Shown here piece after piece: positions 2,335-35,880 of a stretch of DNA of 45,686 bases. The translations under genes were made by a program, and so were the position numbers. Source of the stretch: a virus (taxonomy: Duplodnaviria > Heunggongvirae > Uroviricota > Caudoviricetes); IMG/VR virus record IMGVR_UViG_2718217885_000013, one strand, 5' to 3'. The notes beneath the pieces are model-generated. The model was not told the origin of the DNA. It saw nothing but the letters and a program-made list of their open reading frames with translations, and did not search any database. The first letter of the stretch is position 1, and each line of letters starts with the position of its first letter.

Positions 2335-2919
2335 TTACTCCCTGACAGGGTTCGTAGGCCACTCAATATCAGGTGCAGTTGATGTATCAACACGGTTCAG
2401 CAACACCCGATACTTTTTCCAGGCTTCCAGCAATGAGGTTTCTTCCTCCGTTGCGATTTCCAGATCTACAGCATCCTGAAGTGGCGCAATATGCTCACTG
2501 GCTACCTGCATCAGGCTGTTTTTTATTTCTTCCGCCTCCCGGATCCGGAACAGTTTTTCTGCTTCTGCATCTTTCACCCAGGCTGTGCCGTTCCACTTCT
2601 GAAACTCCCCTTCCGGCGATAACCAGGTAACATTTTCCGGTAACGGACCGAGTTCAGAAATAAATAACTCGTCCCCTGACGCTACGTCATAAACCGTTTT
2701 ACCCCGATGGTCTTCAACGAGATGCCACGATGCCTCATCACTGTTGAAAACAGCCACGAAGCCAGCCGGAATATCTGGCGGTGCAATATCGGTACTGTTT
2801 GCTGGCAGACCTGTATGAGGCGGAATATATGCATCACCTTCACCAATAAATTCATTAGTTCCGGCCAGCAGATTATAAATTGTTATGGTCCGTGGTTGTT
2901 CACTCATTCTGAATGCCAT
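2335..2919 (-). CDS. tfa: Tail fibre assembly protein Tfa
   Basis: 194-aa translation recognised as lambda/e14-type Tfa; directly downstream of stf. Confidence 0.9.
2389..2500. repeat. Direct repeat copy 2 (within tfa)
   Basis: Partner of 1341-1451. Confidence 0.7.
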
Positions 2920-5900
2920 TATGCAAGCCTCACAATATAGTTAAATGCGATGTTTTTGACGGTGTTTTCCGCGTTACCAGCAGCGTTAACGGTGATGGTG
3001 TGTCCATGTGAGCCAATCGCAACGGAGTGCGTATGAGCACCAATACCGACAGTATGTGCGTGTGCACCTGCGCTTGCAGCAGTACCCGATACAGAGTGCG
3101 TATGAGCGCCTGCAGAAGAAGTGTTAACACTGTATTTAGAATAATCAGGTGATCCACTTCCCGGAGCACCACTGGAACCACCTGAAACAAATGTCATCGA
3201 ATGGGTATGTGCACCGGCTGAAGCAGCCGTACCGCTAACACTATGGGTATGTGCACCAGTGTTATTCGTGGATTTAGTGCCGTAATCAAACGATGATGTG
3301 GTTTTCGTCCCCAAATCCGTACTGGATGCGCTGGCGCTGTGGGTGTGCGATTTAATGCCGTCCTGTTCCTGAGACAATACGGCACGACCACTGGCGGGCT
3401 TGCCCTTAATCGTCCAGCCACGCATATCAGGAATAACGCCTGACGGATAAGCCACTGCAAGTTTCGGGTATGCAGATTTGTCAAAAGTCTGCCCCTGCAT
3501 CAGGGCATAGCCAGACGGAACGGTATCTGATGGCCACGGGATTGGTGCGCCGACTGGGTAGCTTTCTGGTGGAAGATTTTTCGAGGTATAAACTTCTGCC
3601 CAGTCATCCTCAAAACCATAACCGTCTCTTGAAGAACGGTAGAACAGACCACCATTTCTGTAATGCGCCTTCATCTGCAGGGTCCGGCAACTTCCGACTC
3701 CGGTATAGAAGTTAACCAGAATATAGCTGTCGCCAGAGCGAGTGACATTGTAAGCGCCTGATTCGGCATTCCATGGAACGCCACCATCCGCATCGGCATA
3801 TGTATCCGTTGCCCTTCTGGCAAAAGCAGCCACATGCGCGGCGGTTAAAGTAATATCTTTGGAACCATCAAACTCAACACCAGAAACCCGTCTTGGCGTT
3901 TGCAGCTTTGTTGCTGTTAATGCATTACCGTTCAGACTTGCGGACAGTTTGGTTCCAATAACCAGTTCGCCGGTTGCGTTATCAATAGCAAACGGTCTTA
4001 ATGTATTCCAGCCACCATAAACATCACCTTGATTGGTAAGCAGCAGGTAAGTTTTAGCGCCATCATTACGCCATAATGCACCATACTCTCCACCTATCAT
4101 TCGAATCTGATTACCACCACGCGCTACAATTTCGTCTGTGGCAAAAAGTTTTTTGCACGACAAGTTATCGTTAACGATTAACGAATGAGACTCATAAAAA
4201 CCACGCCCACTCTTAAAATCAAGGATAACGTCCGCCGCGATACATTCAGTCGCTGGATTTGTTGCCCCAAACTTATAGGTCGTATCATTAACAACGAGAT
4301 CAGCACCAGGTGCGGATATTGACAGGCCATCTTCGATAAACGCAAAAACAGGGAAAGCAGCGCCATCAACATAGAACACAGAGCGCAAATCATCGCCCTT
4401 ATTACTCATCATTATTGAGTGGATGGCTCGTTCATTGTTTTGATATTGCCAGAACATTCCATAAGCATAACGCCCCCTGTCAGTCCAGCCACCAGGCATA
4501 ACAAATCCGTTAAACTCGCAGTTATTCATCGGATCGCCTGCGGTTCGCGTTGCCGTGGTGATAATGACCCTTGATGCCAGTTCGCTTACTGAGCCAGCAG
4601 AACGCATAACAACAACAGGGTAATATTTTCCAGATGTTGCACCTGCAGGAGCGTTAACCCGCACATAACGCATACCACGCTTATCAGCAAAGTCTGTTTT
4701 ACTGACCGCGTTAATGTTGTTCAGGAAGCGTCCCTTATCGGGTATATCAGTGCCGTTCTGGTCTTTCTGCAGACGTTTCTCTGCATTGTCATAGGCTGAT
4801 TTTACTGCCTTTGGCGTTGCCGCCAGCGTTTCAGACGTACTGTTGGTCGCACTGCTGAGCTGTACTATCCCCTTTTTCGTCGTGCTCGCATCCTCAAGCG
4901 CCACGGCGGATGCAATATCCTCTGCCCGTTTTGCTGCTGTCTCGGCGCGCGTTGCCGCGGATTCCGCCGTACTTTTGCTCTGAGCTGCCGCCGTCGCACT
5001 GCCAGCTGCCTCTGTCGCCTTCGTGGATGCCGTCGTGGCGCTGCCCTTCGCTGCTGACGCCTGTCTGGTCGCCTCATCTTTTGAAGCAGACGCCGATGAT
5101 GCCGATGACGCCGCCGAACTGGCTGACGATGCGGCAGCCGTTTTTGAGGATTCTGCGCTGGTTTCCGACGCTTTCGCGTTCGTTTCGGATGTCTTCGCTG
5201 CGGAAGCTGACCTCGCTGCTACCGTGGCCTGTTCAGTGGCTTCGCCAGCCTTCGTTGTGGCTGTTGAAGCGGATGATGCGGCGCTTTCTGCCGACTTTCC
5301 GGCAGCGGTGGCACTGGCTGAGGCCTGCCCGGCATTTGTTGACGCGGCGCTGGCAGATGAGGCAGCCGCTGTTTTTGAGTCTGCTGCTGCGGAGGCACTC
5401 TGTCCCGCTGCCGTCTCAGAAGACTTTGCGTTCGTCTCGGACGTTTTTGCCGCCTTCGCGGAAGTTCCTGCCGCTGTTGCCGAGGAGGCTGCACGACTGG
5501 CGCTCGAGGCTGCGTTCGTTTCTGATGATTTCGCTGCCTCTTTTGAAGCCGACGCATCCCTGGCTGAAGTGGCTGCTTCTGACGCTTTCGTGGTCGCGGT
5601 GGATGCAGAAGTGGCTGCTGATTGTTGTGACGCTGCCGCATTCGTTTCTGACGTTTTCGCCGCACCGGCACTGGTAGCCGCCGCGCTTTTTGAGGACTCT
5701 GCAGCGGCAGCACTTTTTGATGCTTCAGTGGCCTTTGCTGATGCCGTTCCTGCGCTGGAAGACGCTGACTGAGCAGATGATGCAGCCTGTCCGGCTGACG
5801 TGCTGGCGGCACGTGCTGAGCCTGCAGCATCGGTTGCATGGGTTGCCGCCTCACGGGCAGATGTGCTGGCATCACTGGCTGACTTCTTCGCGGCTGCCGT

Positions 5901-31188: not shown

Positions 31189-32286
31189 ATGAAAAAATTA
31201 ACAGTGGCAATTTCTGCTGTAGCTGCATCAGTACTGATGGCGATGTCTGCTCAGGCAGCTGAAATTTATAATAAAGACAGTAACAAGCTGGATCTGTACG
31301 GGAAAGTTAATGCCAAGCACTACTTTTCCTCTAACGATGCAGATGATGGTGATACTACTTATGTTCGTCTGGGCTTCAAAGGCGAAACCCAAATCAACGA
31401 TCAGCTGACTGGTTTCGGTCAGTGGGAATATGAATTCAAAGGCAACCGCGCTGAATCTCAAGGTTCCTCCAAAGACAAAACCCGTCTTGCATTTGCAGGC
31501 CTGAAATTCGGTGACTACGGCTCAATCGATTACGGCCGTAACTACGGTGTAGCATACGACATCGGTGCGTGGACTGACGTTCTGCCAGAATTCGGTGGCG
31601 ATACCTGGACCCAAACAGATGTGTTCATGACTGGTCGCACCACTGGTGTTGCAACCTATCGTAACAACGACTTCTTTGGTCTGGTTGATGGTCTGAACTT
31701 TGCTGCTCAGTACCAAGGCAAAAACGATCGTAGCGATTTCGATAACTACACCGAAGGTAACGGTGATGGCTTCGGTTTCTCTGCTACCTATGAATACGAA
31801 GGATTCGGTATCGGTGCAACTTATGCGAAATCTGATCGTACCGACACTCAAGTTAATGCAGGGAAAGTTCTTCCTGAAGTATTTGCTTCCGGTAAAAATG
31901 CAGAAGTTTGGGCCGCAGGTCTGAAATATGACGCTAACAACATTTACCTGGCCACTACCTATTCTGAAACCCAGAATATGACTGTATTTGCTGATCACTT
32001 CGTTGCTAATAAAGCTCAAAACTTCGAAGCTGTTGCACAATATCAGTTCGATTTCGGTCTGCGTCCGTCCGTTGCTTACCTGCAATCTAAAGGTAAGGAT
32101 CTTGGAGTATGGGGCGATCAGGACTTAGTCAAATATGTTGATGTAGGTGCAACCTATTACTTCAACAAAAATATGTCTACTTTCGTTGATTACAAAATCA
32201 ACCTGCTTGACAAAAATGACTTCACTAAAGCACTCGGTGTAAGCACTGATGACATCGTTGCTGTAGGTCTGGTTTACCAGTTCTAA
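31189..32286 (+). CDS. nmpC: Outer membrane porin NmpC (OmpC/OmpF/PhoE family), full length
   Basis: 365 aa with signal peptide and general-porin sequence ending in YQF; sits between Q and S, antisense to the late operon. Confidence 0.9.
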
Positions 32287-33894: not shown

Positions 33895-34349
33895 TACGCC
33901 TCCTGCTTGTCGCGCAGCAGCTGGAACTCGCAGCTCTGCGGAATAGTCAGGTGGCAGCCAATATTCATCGCCCAGGCTTCAACCTTACACAGGAAGACAT
34001 ACATCTCTCCGGTATCAAGATCGGAGGTATGGCGTAACGACTGGATAGTAGTGATTTCGCCGGTTACGACATCAACCAGGTCCTTGGTTTCATAACCGAG
34101 GTATGTGTGTTTGAGAGCATCTTTTACCCATGCTGCGGTAGCGAACGATTTCCCCCTGCTGATGAGGTATTCACTGATTTCGCTGTACCACATGTGGCTG
34201 AGTGCATTCTGGGAAAGACTGCGTCTCTCTCGCCACGGTTTAAGCACCATGCGAAAGCATTTGCCGTCTTCCAGATAAGGCTGGATCTGCTGACCGATAG
34301 CGGTGAAGTTACCGCGATGCAATTTGATGCCATCTTGTGGGAGGTTCAC
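33894..34349 (-). CDS. ybcN: YbcN-like protein (DUF1367-type)
   Basis: 151 aa; GTG start preceded by a GGAGGTG Shine-Dalgarno. Confidence 0.8.
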
Positions 34350-34555
34350 GCTTCACCTCCACAGAGGTCAAACGCTAGATGCAAAGAATTGCAGGTGCAT
34401 TTCTGCATCTGTGAAAGGAGAAGATAGTTTGGATTGTATGTGCGCATAAACGTCCCCGTTTAGCGCAGAAGTCACCGGAGTTGTTCAGGCTCCGATTACT
34501 TAATTATGGCAAGTTGATTATCGCAAATCAAAGGTTTTAATTGTGCTTTATTCTT

Positions 34556-34756
34556 TCAAGCGTTTCCTTCATACCAAAGCCTATAAAGTTTTTCTTCTTC
34601 GTTTGGGTTAATAGGCTCACCATGTTTTAATTTTTCAGTGTACAAAATTGTTGAACAAATCGCGGAAGTTAATCCAGTGATCGCCATCTGCTGCAGATCG
34701 GATTTTTGTGTCCCCCCCAACAGACGATCTCCCATCCATGTAATAATTGTATCCAT
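34556..34756 (-). CDS. Hypothetical 66-aa protein in the moron slot
   Basis: ORF only; no family recognised; preceded on its strand by about 300 nt with no ORF. Confidence 0.35.
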   Translation of the reverse strand: MDTIITWMGDRLLGGTQKSDLQQMAITGLTSAICSTILYTEKLKHGEPINPNEEEKLYRLWYEGNA

Positions 34757-35343
34757 GCTTCAGCCCTTCTTAGTAAATAGTGTGTAGGGCGACTGAAGGA
34801 CCGAGTTTATGCTTTTTCGCATTGCTTTCAGTTAGTAGACCGGTATCGCACCGGAAACAATCCTACGGCAAATTGGTTGTCTGACCTCTCGGTTTTTCGT
34901 GCATTAACCGATACCCACTACAGTCTCGGCGAAAGCTGCACACCCCCAAGGTGTACTGGTAGCACTCGGCACAGCCTAGCGCGCCACTTTCTTCTCACTA
35001 TCCAGTCTAATTTTATCCCCTAGTCAGACACTCAGATGTAGTGCTCCGCAGCGGCATGCGGGGGAATACAAAAACTCGGACAAAATTGGGCCCTCCTTTT
35101 TGAATCACTCGCGGGGATGTAGTTATTAATACATGGGAAAAGATCTGTTTTCAAATCCAACATTATATGGTTTCAATACCACGGGGTGGCTATGTGTTTC
35201 TCATTATTATTTACAATCTACTGTAATCGCTCCGAACGCAAATGCGTCAATACTCGAATCAACTGATCATCCTGCCACGACTGAAATCTCAAATAGGCCG
35301 TTTCTCAAGTAAGAGATTTTGAATGCATTATTGGCTACTGAAA

Positions 35344-35368
35344 TAAAAAACCCAGCACCAACTGGGTT
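35344..35368 (-). terminator. Intrinsic terminator directly after the 164-aa secreted-protein gene
   Basis: Minus strand AACCCAG-uuggug-CUGGGUU followed by UUUUUAUUU. Confidence 0.65.
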
Positions 35369-35385
35369 CATATGAAATTTTTTTG

Positions 35386-35880
35386 TCATTTCCAATTGCA
35401 AGACTGTGAAATTTTTTCCACAACCTTATCAATCTCAGACAAGTCAAACTCAACTACTTGCATAGTTGATCCATAAGGTTCAAACCCAAAAATAGCTTTT
35501 TTATGCTTAGCCAAGGTCTTTATAAATTGTATTGGTTGTGGAGCAAATGCAGAATCACCGCCTTCCCCACCTCCCCAAGCACTCTTGACCGGCTTTCCGC
35601 CATCTAACCGCACTGTAATTCTTGGGTTGTCCGAACCCATATAATCATTGAATGATAAATAGGCATCTGTTTTGTTATCACTACAACGCAACACCAGTGA
35701 AGTTGCACGATCAGTACCTGCTTTGTTATATGAATCTGGTGATAAATTAAGAGCCACAAAGTCAGTCTGGTCAGTCATTTTATTTATCTCAGACTTTGTT
35801 ATCCACGGCCCTAACTTCTCTACACCAGCATTTGCAGTAAACGAGGCACTTATGACAAAGGCTATAATAAATTTTCTCAT
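35386..35880 (-). CDS. Hypothetical secreted/periplasmic protein (moron)
   Basis: 164 aa with a typical Sec signal peptide (MRKFIIAFVISASFTANA); own terminator; no family recognised. Confidence 0.6.
   Translation of the reverse strand: MRKFIIAFVISASFTANAGVEKLGPWITKSEINKMTDQTDFVALNLSPDSYNKAGTDRATSLVLRCSDNKTDAYLSFNDYMGSDNPRITVRLDGGKPVKSAWGGGEGGDSAFAPQPIQFIKTLAKHKKAIFGFEPYGSTMQVVEFDLSEIDKVVEKISQSCNWK

Follow-up and report, generated by a model that had tools for sequence, protein, structure and literature searches.

What does a phage genome that is otherwise dense with genes keep in 629 bp that seem to hold none? This question is raised by IMG/VR virus record IMGVR_UViG_2718217885_000013, a stretch of 45,686 nucleotides (nt), hereafter referred to as the window, which is a complete lambda-like prophage. 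An earlier reading of its letters and open reading frames (ORFs), hereafter the sequence-only reading, saw no credible protein gene between positions 34757 and 35385 and named three candidates for this gap: a structured non-coding RNA (ncRNA), a long regulatory leader, or a decayed gene remnant. Its negative statement holds, as the ORF list gives only short ORFs for the gap, none of them conserved in relatives, the longest being, as claimed, a 59-amino-acid (aa) ORF on the plus strand (35133–35312). Among the candidates, the first fares best. The core of the gap (35118–34788, minus strand) is very probably the gene for a compactly folded ncRNA of ~330 nt that belongs to a family absent from Rfam. 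Strong covariation, discrete boundaries, a terminator in relatives and a non-coding substitution pattern all argue for it.

A conserved core in lambda-like prophages

The core runs from 5′ AUCCCCGCGAG to CAGUCGCC 3′ (34788–35118, minus strand). Loci were collected by exact-pattern scans of viral and metagenome contigs and then with nhmmer profiles, which placed the RNA element in 93 loci; five further copies (L107, L116, L122, L125 and L129) came later. By BLAST, 158 of 5,426 complete E. coli genomes have the RNA, each in a single copy, and so do 4 of 50,697 phage records (two Escherichia, two Klebsiella), with no match in the plasmid collection. It was not found in 185,579 species-representative genomes, where a 49-nt degenerate pattern gave no match. 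One copy (L122) sits in the chromosome of Kosakonia sp. MUSA4 (CP025697.1). The carriers are lambda-like prophages of Enterobacteriaceae (Escherichia, Klebsiella, Kosakonia), and the site lies between the O/P replication genes and ninB. The gap stretch is matched by 180 RefSeq E. coli genomes, with no annotated feature under the full-length matches. Some candidate loci were discarded. Ten 18-mer matches in the species-representative genomes are chance hits (unrelated phyla, nhmmer E > 0.004), and looser two-block patterns applied to the viral contigs brought only chance matches (L105, L106) or one degenerate copy (L116).

The conserved block is sharply bounded. Across twelve divergent representatives, mean column identity is 0.65–0.99 within positions +4 to +321 of the RNA, compared with 0.26–0.5 on either side. 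Between two E. coli contexts, the core is identical at 326 of 329 positions and the promoter-like stretch at 56 of 57, with 83% identity in a gene remnant further upstream and 90% at the start of the downstream ORF. The difference between the core (326/329) and its flanks (83–90%) indicates that the core is under purifying selection. Most E. coli copies are at least 99% identical, and the RNA sub-families differ by 15–30%. When 6 kb around the divergent copies were compared with all phage records, the RNA was essentially the sole segment common to other carriers. By these comparisons, the RNA is a discrete and self-contained module whose neighbours vary on both sides.

Fold and long-range contacts

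A first structure model from RNAalifold, with 13 compensatory pairs, was refined by scanning all column pairs for covarying helices, and the final model was counted on three alignments. As controls, the pairing partners were slid by 1–3 columns. The 93 pairs of the final model are canonical in 96.7–97.6% of cells, as opposed to 34–43% in the slid controls. Pairs changed on both sides number 17, 25 and 26 in the three alignments, as opposed to 0–8 in the controls, and the model beats all 500 shuffles on four of five measures. The alignment for compensatory changes that the sequence-only reading had proposed thus yields up to 26 doubly changed pairs. G·U cells outnumber A·C cells by 211 to 5, and the opposite strand would pair in only 87% of cells; the G·U excess fixes the minus strand as the RNA strand.

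In the model, ~18 helices are arranged in two domains that are joined by two long-range contacts. In the 5′ domain (35118–35015), helix P1 closes a junction of P2 and P3; in the 3′ domain (35007–34791), P4 closes P5/P5a/P5b, P6, P7, P9 and P10. The best-supported helices are P5 (three of six pairs compensatory), P5a, P5b (five of six), P6 (four to five of eight), P3, P9 and P7. Hairpin P9, CCGGU-GCGAU-ACCGG on the minus strand (34840–34854), is the local hairpin CCGGTgcgatACCGG already quoted in the sequence-only reading. It is real, and its closing pair covaries in three versions, A-U, U-A and C-G. Several unpaired stretches are invariant, namely UCUGAC, AUAGUG, GAAAA (twice) and CAGACA. An 11-nt complementarity between RNA positions 43–53 and 311–321 was rejected as a helix, since it is broken by G45C in L051/L052 and by G320A in L122, the latter of which preserves P7.

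The first long-range contact is a kissing loop. Loop L3 at the tip of P3 (CACUAC, 35043–35038, the 5′ partner) and loop L6 at the tip of P6 (GUAGUG, 34921–34916, the 3′ partner) are complementary over 6 nt in every sequence, and they co-vary in four versions, CACUAC/GUAGUG, CACCAC/GUGGUG, CGCAAC/GUUGCG and CAUCAC/GUGAUG. All six pairs are formed in 23 of 23 sequences, and three of the six carry compensatory changes. In the second contact, PK2, the joining strand J3/1 (UCUGAC, 35028–35023, the 5′ strand) is perfectly complementary to GUCAGA (34885–34880, the 3′ strand) in a loop of the 3′ domain. The joining strand is otherwise invariant, with a C-to-U change in UCUGAC of L107 and L129 matched by G-to-A in the partner, so that PK2 is kept. 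A competing local hairpin, GGU-CAGACA-ACC, is disfavored because this paired change breaks it. Both contacts may form within one molecule or between molecules, as the covariation fits either arrangement.

In line with an RNA gene, the variable columns are distributed evenly over the codon phases (47/43/49, p = 0.82), that is, there is no 3-base periodicity across the family.

Several points weigh against the structural reading and should be considered together. The RNA gene is known here solely from DNA sequence comparison. The family is narrow, with about six sub-lineages, and the cell counts therefore overstate the number of independent compensatory events. P1 shows just one double change, and changes in P4 are all one-sided, apart from misaligned cells in L107/L129. 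Helices P2a, 16–17/57–58, P2b, P2c, 253–255/298–300 and P10 are invariant or vary on one side only. P1, P4 and these six are compatible with the model, with little or no proof from covariation. The support for PK2 is moderate, since it comes from one evolutionary event. Finally, the folding energy of the single sequence is ordinary when compared with shuffles (z = −0.43), so the case for structure rests on comparison, not on thermodynamics.

One copy looks decayed. In L116 (IMGVR_UViG_2506520035_000002, 4017–4357) there are two mismatches in the kissing loop and one in PK2, P7 is broken (CUCGG to CUAGG), P1 is damaged, and no terminator is present. In its 5′ part this copy is similar to the L107 type, in its 3′ part to the L051 type; it may therefore be a recombinant.

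The locus, its signals and its neighbours

Because the early-right genes of the prophage are on the minus strand, all features of the gap are read on that strand. The gene order is cI-type repressor, YdaT-family gene, O, P, a gene for a 164-aa secreted VasI-like protein, the gap, a 66-aa ORF, NinB, NinE, YbcO, RusA and Q. The gap does lie directly upstream of the 66-aa ORF (34556–34756), as the sequence-only reading stated. The gap is not homogeneous, however. It divides into four parts: a terminator, a gene remnant, a promoter-like stretch and the RNA core.

The first part (35338–35369) is an intrinsic terminator that the scan for terminators detects and that belongs to the 164-aa gene upstream. 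Its 9-bp stem (35369–35348, GAACCCAG..CTGGGTT) is followed by a T-tract, and it is placed directly after the stop codon of that ORF (35386–35880). Weak Rfam matches at this position (rimP, RyhB) reflect the terminator only. The second part (35306–35218) is what remains of a Roi/antirepressor-like gene encoding a 'P22AR C-terminal domain' protein, namely its last 28 codons and stop; the remnant lacks a start codon and is preceded by a stop in the same frame. Translated, it gives ETAYLRFQSWQDDQLIRVLTHLRSERLQ*, which shares 68% identity with residues 175–202 of the intact 202-aa protein of phage IdasGreatGrand. The intact gene is annotated at the same place in ~100 E. coli genomes (RefSeq) as well as in IdasGreatGrand, to which the window is 83% identical at the DNA level in the remnant and 99% in the RNA. 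The comparison indicates that the remainder of the antirepressor-like gene has been replaced by the 164-aa gene and its terminator. Thus, the idea of a decayed gene is right for these ~90 nt upstream of the RNA, where comparison of the translation shows the remnant, and wrong for the RNA core, whose frames are broken in relatives.

The third part (35122–35175) holds a putative promoter, recognized by its −35-like and −10-like hexamers and by their recurrence in relatives. In the window it reads TTGAAA (35154–35149), a 17-nt spacer and TATTAA (35131–35126). All sub-families have TTGAAA, TTGAAT, TTGATT or TTGTAT, then 17 unconserved nt, then TATTAA, TTTAAT or TTAAAT, with the −10-like hexamer ending 6–8 nt before the first base of P1. 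Column identity rises at −55 to −37 and again at −16 to +3. From these signals we infer that the RNA starts at or adjoining A35118. In L066, what precedes the −10 element has been replaced by other sequence, and the left boundary of the module is therefore placed there. An imperfect palindrome (35171–35157) overlaps the −35-like element; in L060 it is a perfect 7-bp inverted repeat (AACCATA-n5-TATGGTT), and the Kosakonia copy has one at the same position, AACCATAT..ATGTGGTT. It could be an operator or a small hairpin. We also considered a sigma-32-type reading of TTGAAA...CCCATGT in the window, and rejected it for its insufficient spacing and because relatives do not share the motif.

At the other end, most relatives carry ACCGCC-loop-GGCGGU with a tail of 7–8 U; it lies ~10 nt beyond the core, ahead of the downstream ORF, and the scan calls this terminator in L122 and L063. 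In the window, the terminator scan found none between 34790 and 34556, and the other copies that precede the 118-aa gene, of which the 66-aa ORF is a truncated allele, likewise lack one there. Instead, a short spacer of 31 nt (34757–34787) carries the Shine-Dalgarno sequence of the 66-aa ORF, AAGGG (34768–34764), 7 nt before its ATG. The RNA would share the rightward transcription of the early-right operon and would arise in one of two ways, from a weak, non-canonical promoter of its own immediately upstream or through processing of a long early transcript. It would end at the strong intrinsic terminator in most relatives, and the window copy would continue into the 66-aa ORF.

The genes around the RNA are diverse. 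Upstream there are Roi-like, VasI-like, dATP/dGTP pyrophosphohydrolase-like and other genes. In the Kosakonia copy (L122, 1–1819), an AAA_21 ATPase and a RloB-family protein, an AbiL-like defense pair, end ~800 nt before the RNA start. Downstream, at least five mutually unrelated families occur. They include the 118-aa protein (cl1; PHROG 12412), truncated to 66 aa in the window by allele comparison; a 178–191-aa protein with terminal membrane segments (cl38); a 183-aa Klebsiella protein (cl45); and a 95-aa plus 162-aa pair. In L052 the RNA is followed by an ordinary nin-region gene, DUF1367. Common ancestry of the downstream proteins was rejected, as hhalign probabilities among cl1, cl38, cl45, cl95 and cl96 are at most 0.5%. 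None of these five has a Pfam or PADLOC match, and PHROGs labels them 'unknown function'. In Klebsiella phage Kp4856-1 (L002, 387–938 relative to the RNA), cl45 contains RLRHNLLH, which fits the R-x4-H motif of HEPN ribonucleases; this is a by-eye reading without support from the profile libraries.

The 118-aa gene is the commonest downstream neighbour in E. coli. Its full-length allele is found in IdasGreatGrand and 96 E. coli genomes, and the short allele of the window type in ~58. The two part at a G7 run near 34706–34712, where the full-length allele reads GGGGTGGATAAC, and there is no match beyond about nt 193 of the gene. Homologues of the 66-aa ORF amount to only 13 proteins, all hypothetical. 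As for cl38, the RNA lies upstream of homologues at 92%, 72% and 50% identity and is missing from those at 65% (Salmonella/Citrobacter), 49%, 42%, 39% and 37% (Pantoea). Since the downstream genes are unrelated, cl38 occurs without the RNA, and L052 has an ordinary nin gene, the RNA and its neighbours are separable modules. Small membrane proteins, the VasI-like secreted protein and the AbiL-like AAA_21+RloB pair are among the cargo near the RNA, which suggests that the P–ninB interval is a hotspot for defense or accessory genes.

Three other features of the window deserve mention. A second conserved stretch (34346–34532, minus strand) lies between the 66-aa ORF and ninB. It occurs in 37 phage records (HK639, HK225, 4A7, CobraSix and Klebsiella phages), some of them without the RNA, and is mostly unannotated. 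It holds TTGATT-17-CATAAT (34531–34503, promoter scan), two to three conserved hairpins and a conserved 33-aa ORF (34447–34346), which we take to be ylcH, the gene upstream of ybcN/ninB in the E. coli K-12 prophage DLP12. A 365-aa general porin (31189–32286, plus strand; Porin_1, E = 1.8e-156), a classic lysogenic-conversion 'moron', is encoded between Q and the lysis genes, on the other strand. At the far end of the prophage (2378–2576, minus strand) there is a full-length Rfam IS009 (RF02111; 227.9 bits against a gathering threshold of 117), a known prophage-associated element resembling a small RNA (sRNA).

Possible functions

We tentatively favor an RNA that acts in trans, by binding protein or by self-assembly, and that is carried as accessory cargo of the prophage. 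Among the readings considered, this one fits best because of the compact fold, the two tertiary contacts, the invariant unpaired stretches, the stand-alone architecture and the cargo hotspot. It would act as a folded RNA, as a 'moron' in a locus that collects such cargo. It could do so by binding and holding a protein, as decoy or scaffold, or by self-assembly of copies through the kissing loop, and conflict between phage and host or between phages would be the likely arena. A bolder reading is doubtful, though worth stating: the RNA might be the first member of a class of compact 'ornate' RNAs in Enterobacteriaceae that have no dedicated protein, forming L3–L6 multimers or a ribozyme or ligand-binding fold, and serving the prophage as weapon or shield. 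Whatever belief the readings discussed here leave over goes to ribozyme, ligand-binding and other roles.

Having raised the possibility of action in trans, we would note what speaks against it. Antisense complementarity to the own phage genome is limited to seven 11-mers (7.6 ± 3.4 expected), with none of 12 nt or longer, and no partner or target is indicated. A strict sigma-70 scan calls no promoter at this place, in the window or in three relatives, because the −10 element lacks A at position 2 or T at position 6; weakness or regulation of the putative promoter could account for this, as could excision of the RNA from a long early transcript. In E. coli, moreover, the RNA (158 genomes) is hardly ever found apart from the 118-aa gene (157 genomes), and no terminator separates them, so that a leader role is conceivable for the cl1 architecture.

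The leader is the rival that survives best, and still we consider it unlikely for the family as a whole. According to it, promoter, RNA and terminator make up a portable 5′ control unit, acting in cis on a downstream accessory gene. It could be a sensor that sets terminator read-through, or a stabilizing or processive-antitermination leader. A same-strand ORF is indeed always found within ~25–60 nt, too close to have its own promoter; copies of the cl1 architecture lead from the RNA directly to a Shine-Dalgarno sequence and ATG; and the order promoter–RNA–terminator–ORF is that of an attenuator. The location presumably corresponds to the tR2 region of lambda ahead of nin/Q, which we count on the same side. 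However, a non-exhaustive inspection shows nothing conserved in the RNA that could pair alternatively with the terminator arms, the sole candidate being in L052, and there is no overlap between the terminator and P4, the outermost 3′ helix. Functionally, furthermore, the downstream genes are unrelated, and the next one in L052 is an ordinary nin gene, which is not what a riboswitch or attenuator would lead one to expect. A size of 330 nt with two tertiary contacts is far beyond the needs of known attenuators, and if a constitutive promoter were followed by a processive antiterminator, Q and lysis would be switched on in the lysogen. The leader candidate of the sequence-only reading is thus retained for the window copy, which lacks a terminator before the 66-aa ORF. 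It is otherwise disfavored, given the strong terminator that separates the RNA from unrelated genes in relatives and the lack of switch-type alternative pairing.

It is improbable, though not without parallels, that the RNA is the antitoxin or regulator of an adjacent protein, as in type III toxin–antitoxin (TA) or AbiF/RCd22-like systems, the toxic effector being made through rare terminator read-through. ToxIN consists of a promoter, an RNA, a strong terminator and a small ORF, and the order in the terminator-bearing relatives matches it. Several of the downstream proteins are small or membrane proteins, the by-eye R-x4-H motif of cl45 would suit a toxin, and the RNA–cl1 and RNA–cl38 pairs have each co-diverged across several RNA sub-types. 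The order also resembles that of the AbiF ncRNA system, in which the RNA neutralizes the toxin by direct binding (PMC12373285). Against this stand the lack of tandem repeats in the RNA and the presence of at least five unrelated partner proteins with no Pfam or PADLOC match. Moreover, cl38 homologues exist without the RNA, the RNA exists without a special partner (L052), and in the window the partner is truncated while the RNA is intact.

A decayed or unrecognized small protein gene is a very improbable explanation of the conservation. The best case for it is an invariant AAGGAGG (35098–35092), a perfect Shine-Dalgarno-like sequence 8 nt before a UUG (35083–35081) that opens 19 codons; this frame (within 35098–35024) ends at a UGA inside the PK2 strand. 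The true gene remnant just upstream and two 'hypothetical proteins' of 39 and 43 aa that a gene caller placed on the IdasGreatGrand copy could be added to it. The frames of these two are not conserved, however. In most members, none of the three codon positions of the mini-ORF varies; the frame has a stop in L004/L011 and a frameshift in L107, and its few changes in L051/L052 are mostly first-position and non-synonymous, with no synonymous ones. This pattern of variation argues against a peptide. Other frames do no better: in the Klebsiella copy, a stop interrupts the internal ATG frame of the core, and the 61-aa open frame of some relatives is shut in the window by a UAG inside loop L6. Codon periodicity is absent, as described above, and compensatory base-pair changes account for the variation. 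Of conserved frame, third-position bias and protein similarity, the core has none, and in the gap such signs of a pseudogene are confined to the remnant at 35306–35218. That an exact complement of the anti-Shine-Dalgarno sequence, AAGGAGG, is invariant within a folded RNA is an observation in its own right.

As to a mobile element, direct repeats are absent from the RNA, and the conserved block is not bordered by terminal inverted repeats, as it would be in a miniature inverted-repeat transposable element. Equally hard to credit is a functionless stretch conserved only through recent recombinational spread among related prophages: its narrow range (none of the 185,579 species-representative genomes with two patterns, four of the 50,697 phage records, no plasmids), the near-identity of most E. 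coli copies and the degenerate look of L116 would suit such a history, but sub-families 15–30% apart have retained 97% of the pairs by way of 26 double changes, the flanks have diverged about ten times as fast, and four matched versions of a 6-bp loop–loop contact are beyond drift.

Comparison with known RNAs

With the 4,227 covariance models of Rfam 15, a scan of the whole window at gathering thresholds returned only IS009, which is outside the gap. The Rfam scan suggested in the sequence-only reading was also run in sensitive mode on the region, on the RNA alone and on four divergent relatives, and the core stayed unmatched even at E ≤ 10. ARAGORN found no tRNA or tmRNA gene in the whole window, and our literature searches found no published description of this RNA. 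By these comparisons the RNA forms a new family without detectable relatives, in a category that is itself known, that of stand-alone structured RNAs of prophages.

The sRNAs of prophages, such as AgvB, AsxR, DicF, the Pas sRNAs and IS009, are likewise found in E. coli lambdoid prophages, are mostly unannotated, and have an intrinsic terminator (here, in relatives). Unlike the current RNA, which is almost fully structured over 330 nt, those that act by base-pairing are short with an unstructured seed. Our RNA also lacks extended complementarity to its own phage and matches none of their Rfam models. The put RNAs of the HK022 type are cis-acting antiterminators of lambdoid phages, ~70 nt long with two stem-loops, situated right after pL and pR. 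Comparing from general knowledge, they share with our RNA a folded structure in a lambdoid early operon immediately upstream of terminators. The latter, however, is ~330 nt, follows the replication genes and apparently has its own promoter; similarity between the two was compared through Rfam only.

Type III TA systems (ToxI) and AbiF-like systems (RCd22 of C. difficile) are also prophage-borne, with a promoter, an abundant RNA, a terminator and a small ORF reached by read-through; at our locus, a terminator in this place is present in most relatives and absent from the window and the other cl1-type copies. Here, by contrast, there is a single large fold without repeats or short motifs, and the RNA and the downstream proteins occur apart. 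No endoribonuclease of the ToxN/AbiQ/CptN type was found by Pfam or PADLOC among cl1, cl38, cl45, cl95 and cl96. Similarly, Pfam, PADLOC and Rfam gave no Abi_2/AbiD/F protein downstream and no abiF RNA motif. No reverse transcriptase is present among the immediate neighbours of the RNA in 20 representative loci (P, VasI-like, Roi-like, dATP/dGTP pyrophosphohydrolase-like, cl1/38/45, DUF1367 and NinB), the other ORFs within ±2.5 kb not having been scanned against protein families.

RNAs this large and this ordered are rare; the known ones are ribozymes, riboswitches, ribonucleoprotein scaffolds and, recently, RNA-only cages. An RNA of 330 nt with ribozyme-grade architecture, by our model, is thus carried by 3% of complete E. 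coli genomes, unseen by annotation pipelines and by Rfam, and this although no bacterial system has been studied more closely than E. coli with its lambda-like phages.

The closest parallels are ROOL and GOLLD, which, like the current RNA, are stand-alone structured ncRNAs of prophages with covarying pseudoknots or kissing loops and no identified protein partner. There is no similarity in sequence or structure, and none of their covariance models matches our RNA even at E ≤ 10. Our RNA is not beside a tRNA island, and its hosts are lambdoid prophages of Enterobacteriaceae. ROOL is ~580 nt long. GOLLD members often exceed 800 nt, as opposed to ~330 nt here, and in both ROOL and GOLLD, contacts initially detected through covariation turned out to link separate copies within a multimer (PMC12286853). 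Multimerization of this type, through L3–L6, may equally apply to the RNA described here. The advantage over ROOL and GOLLD is that host and phage are genetically tractable, so that the function of this RNA is directly testable.

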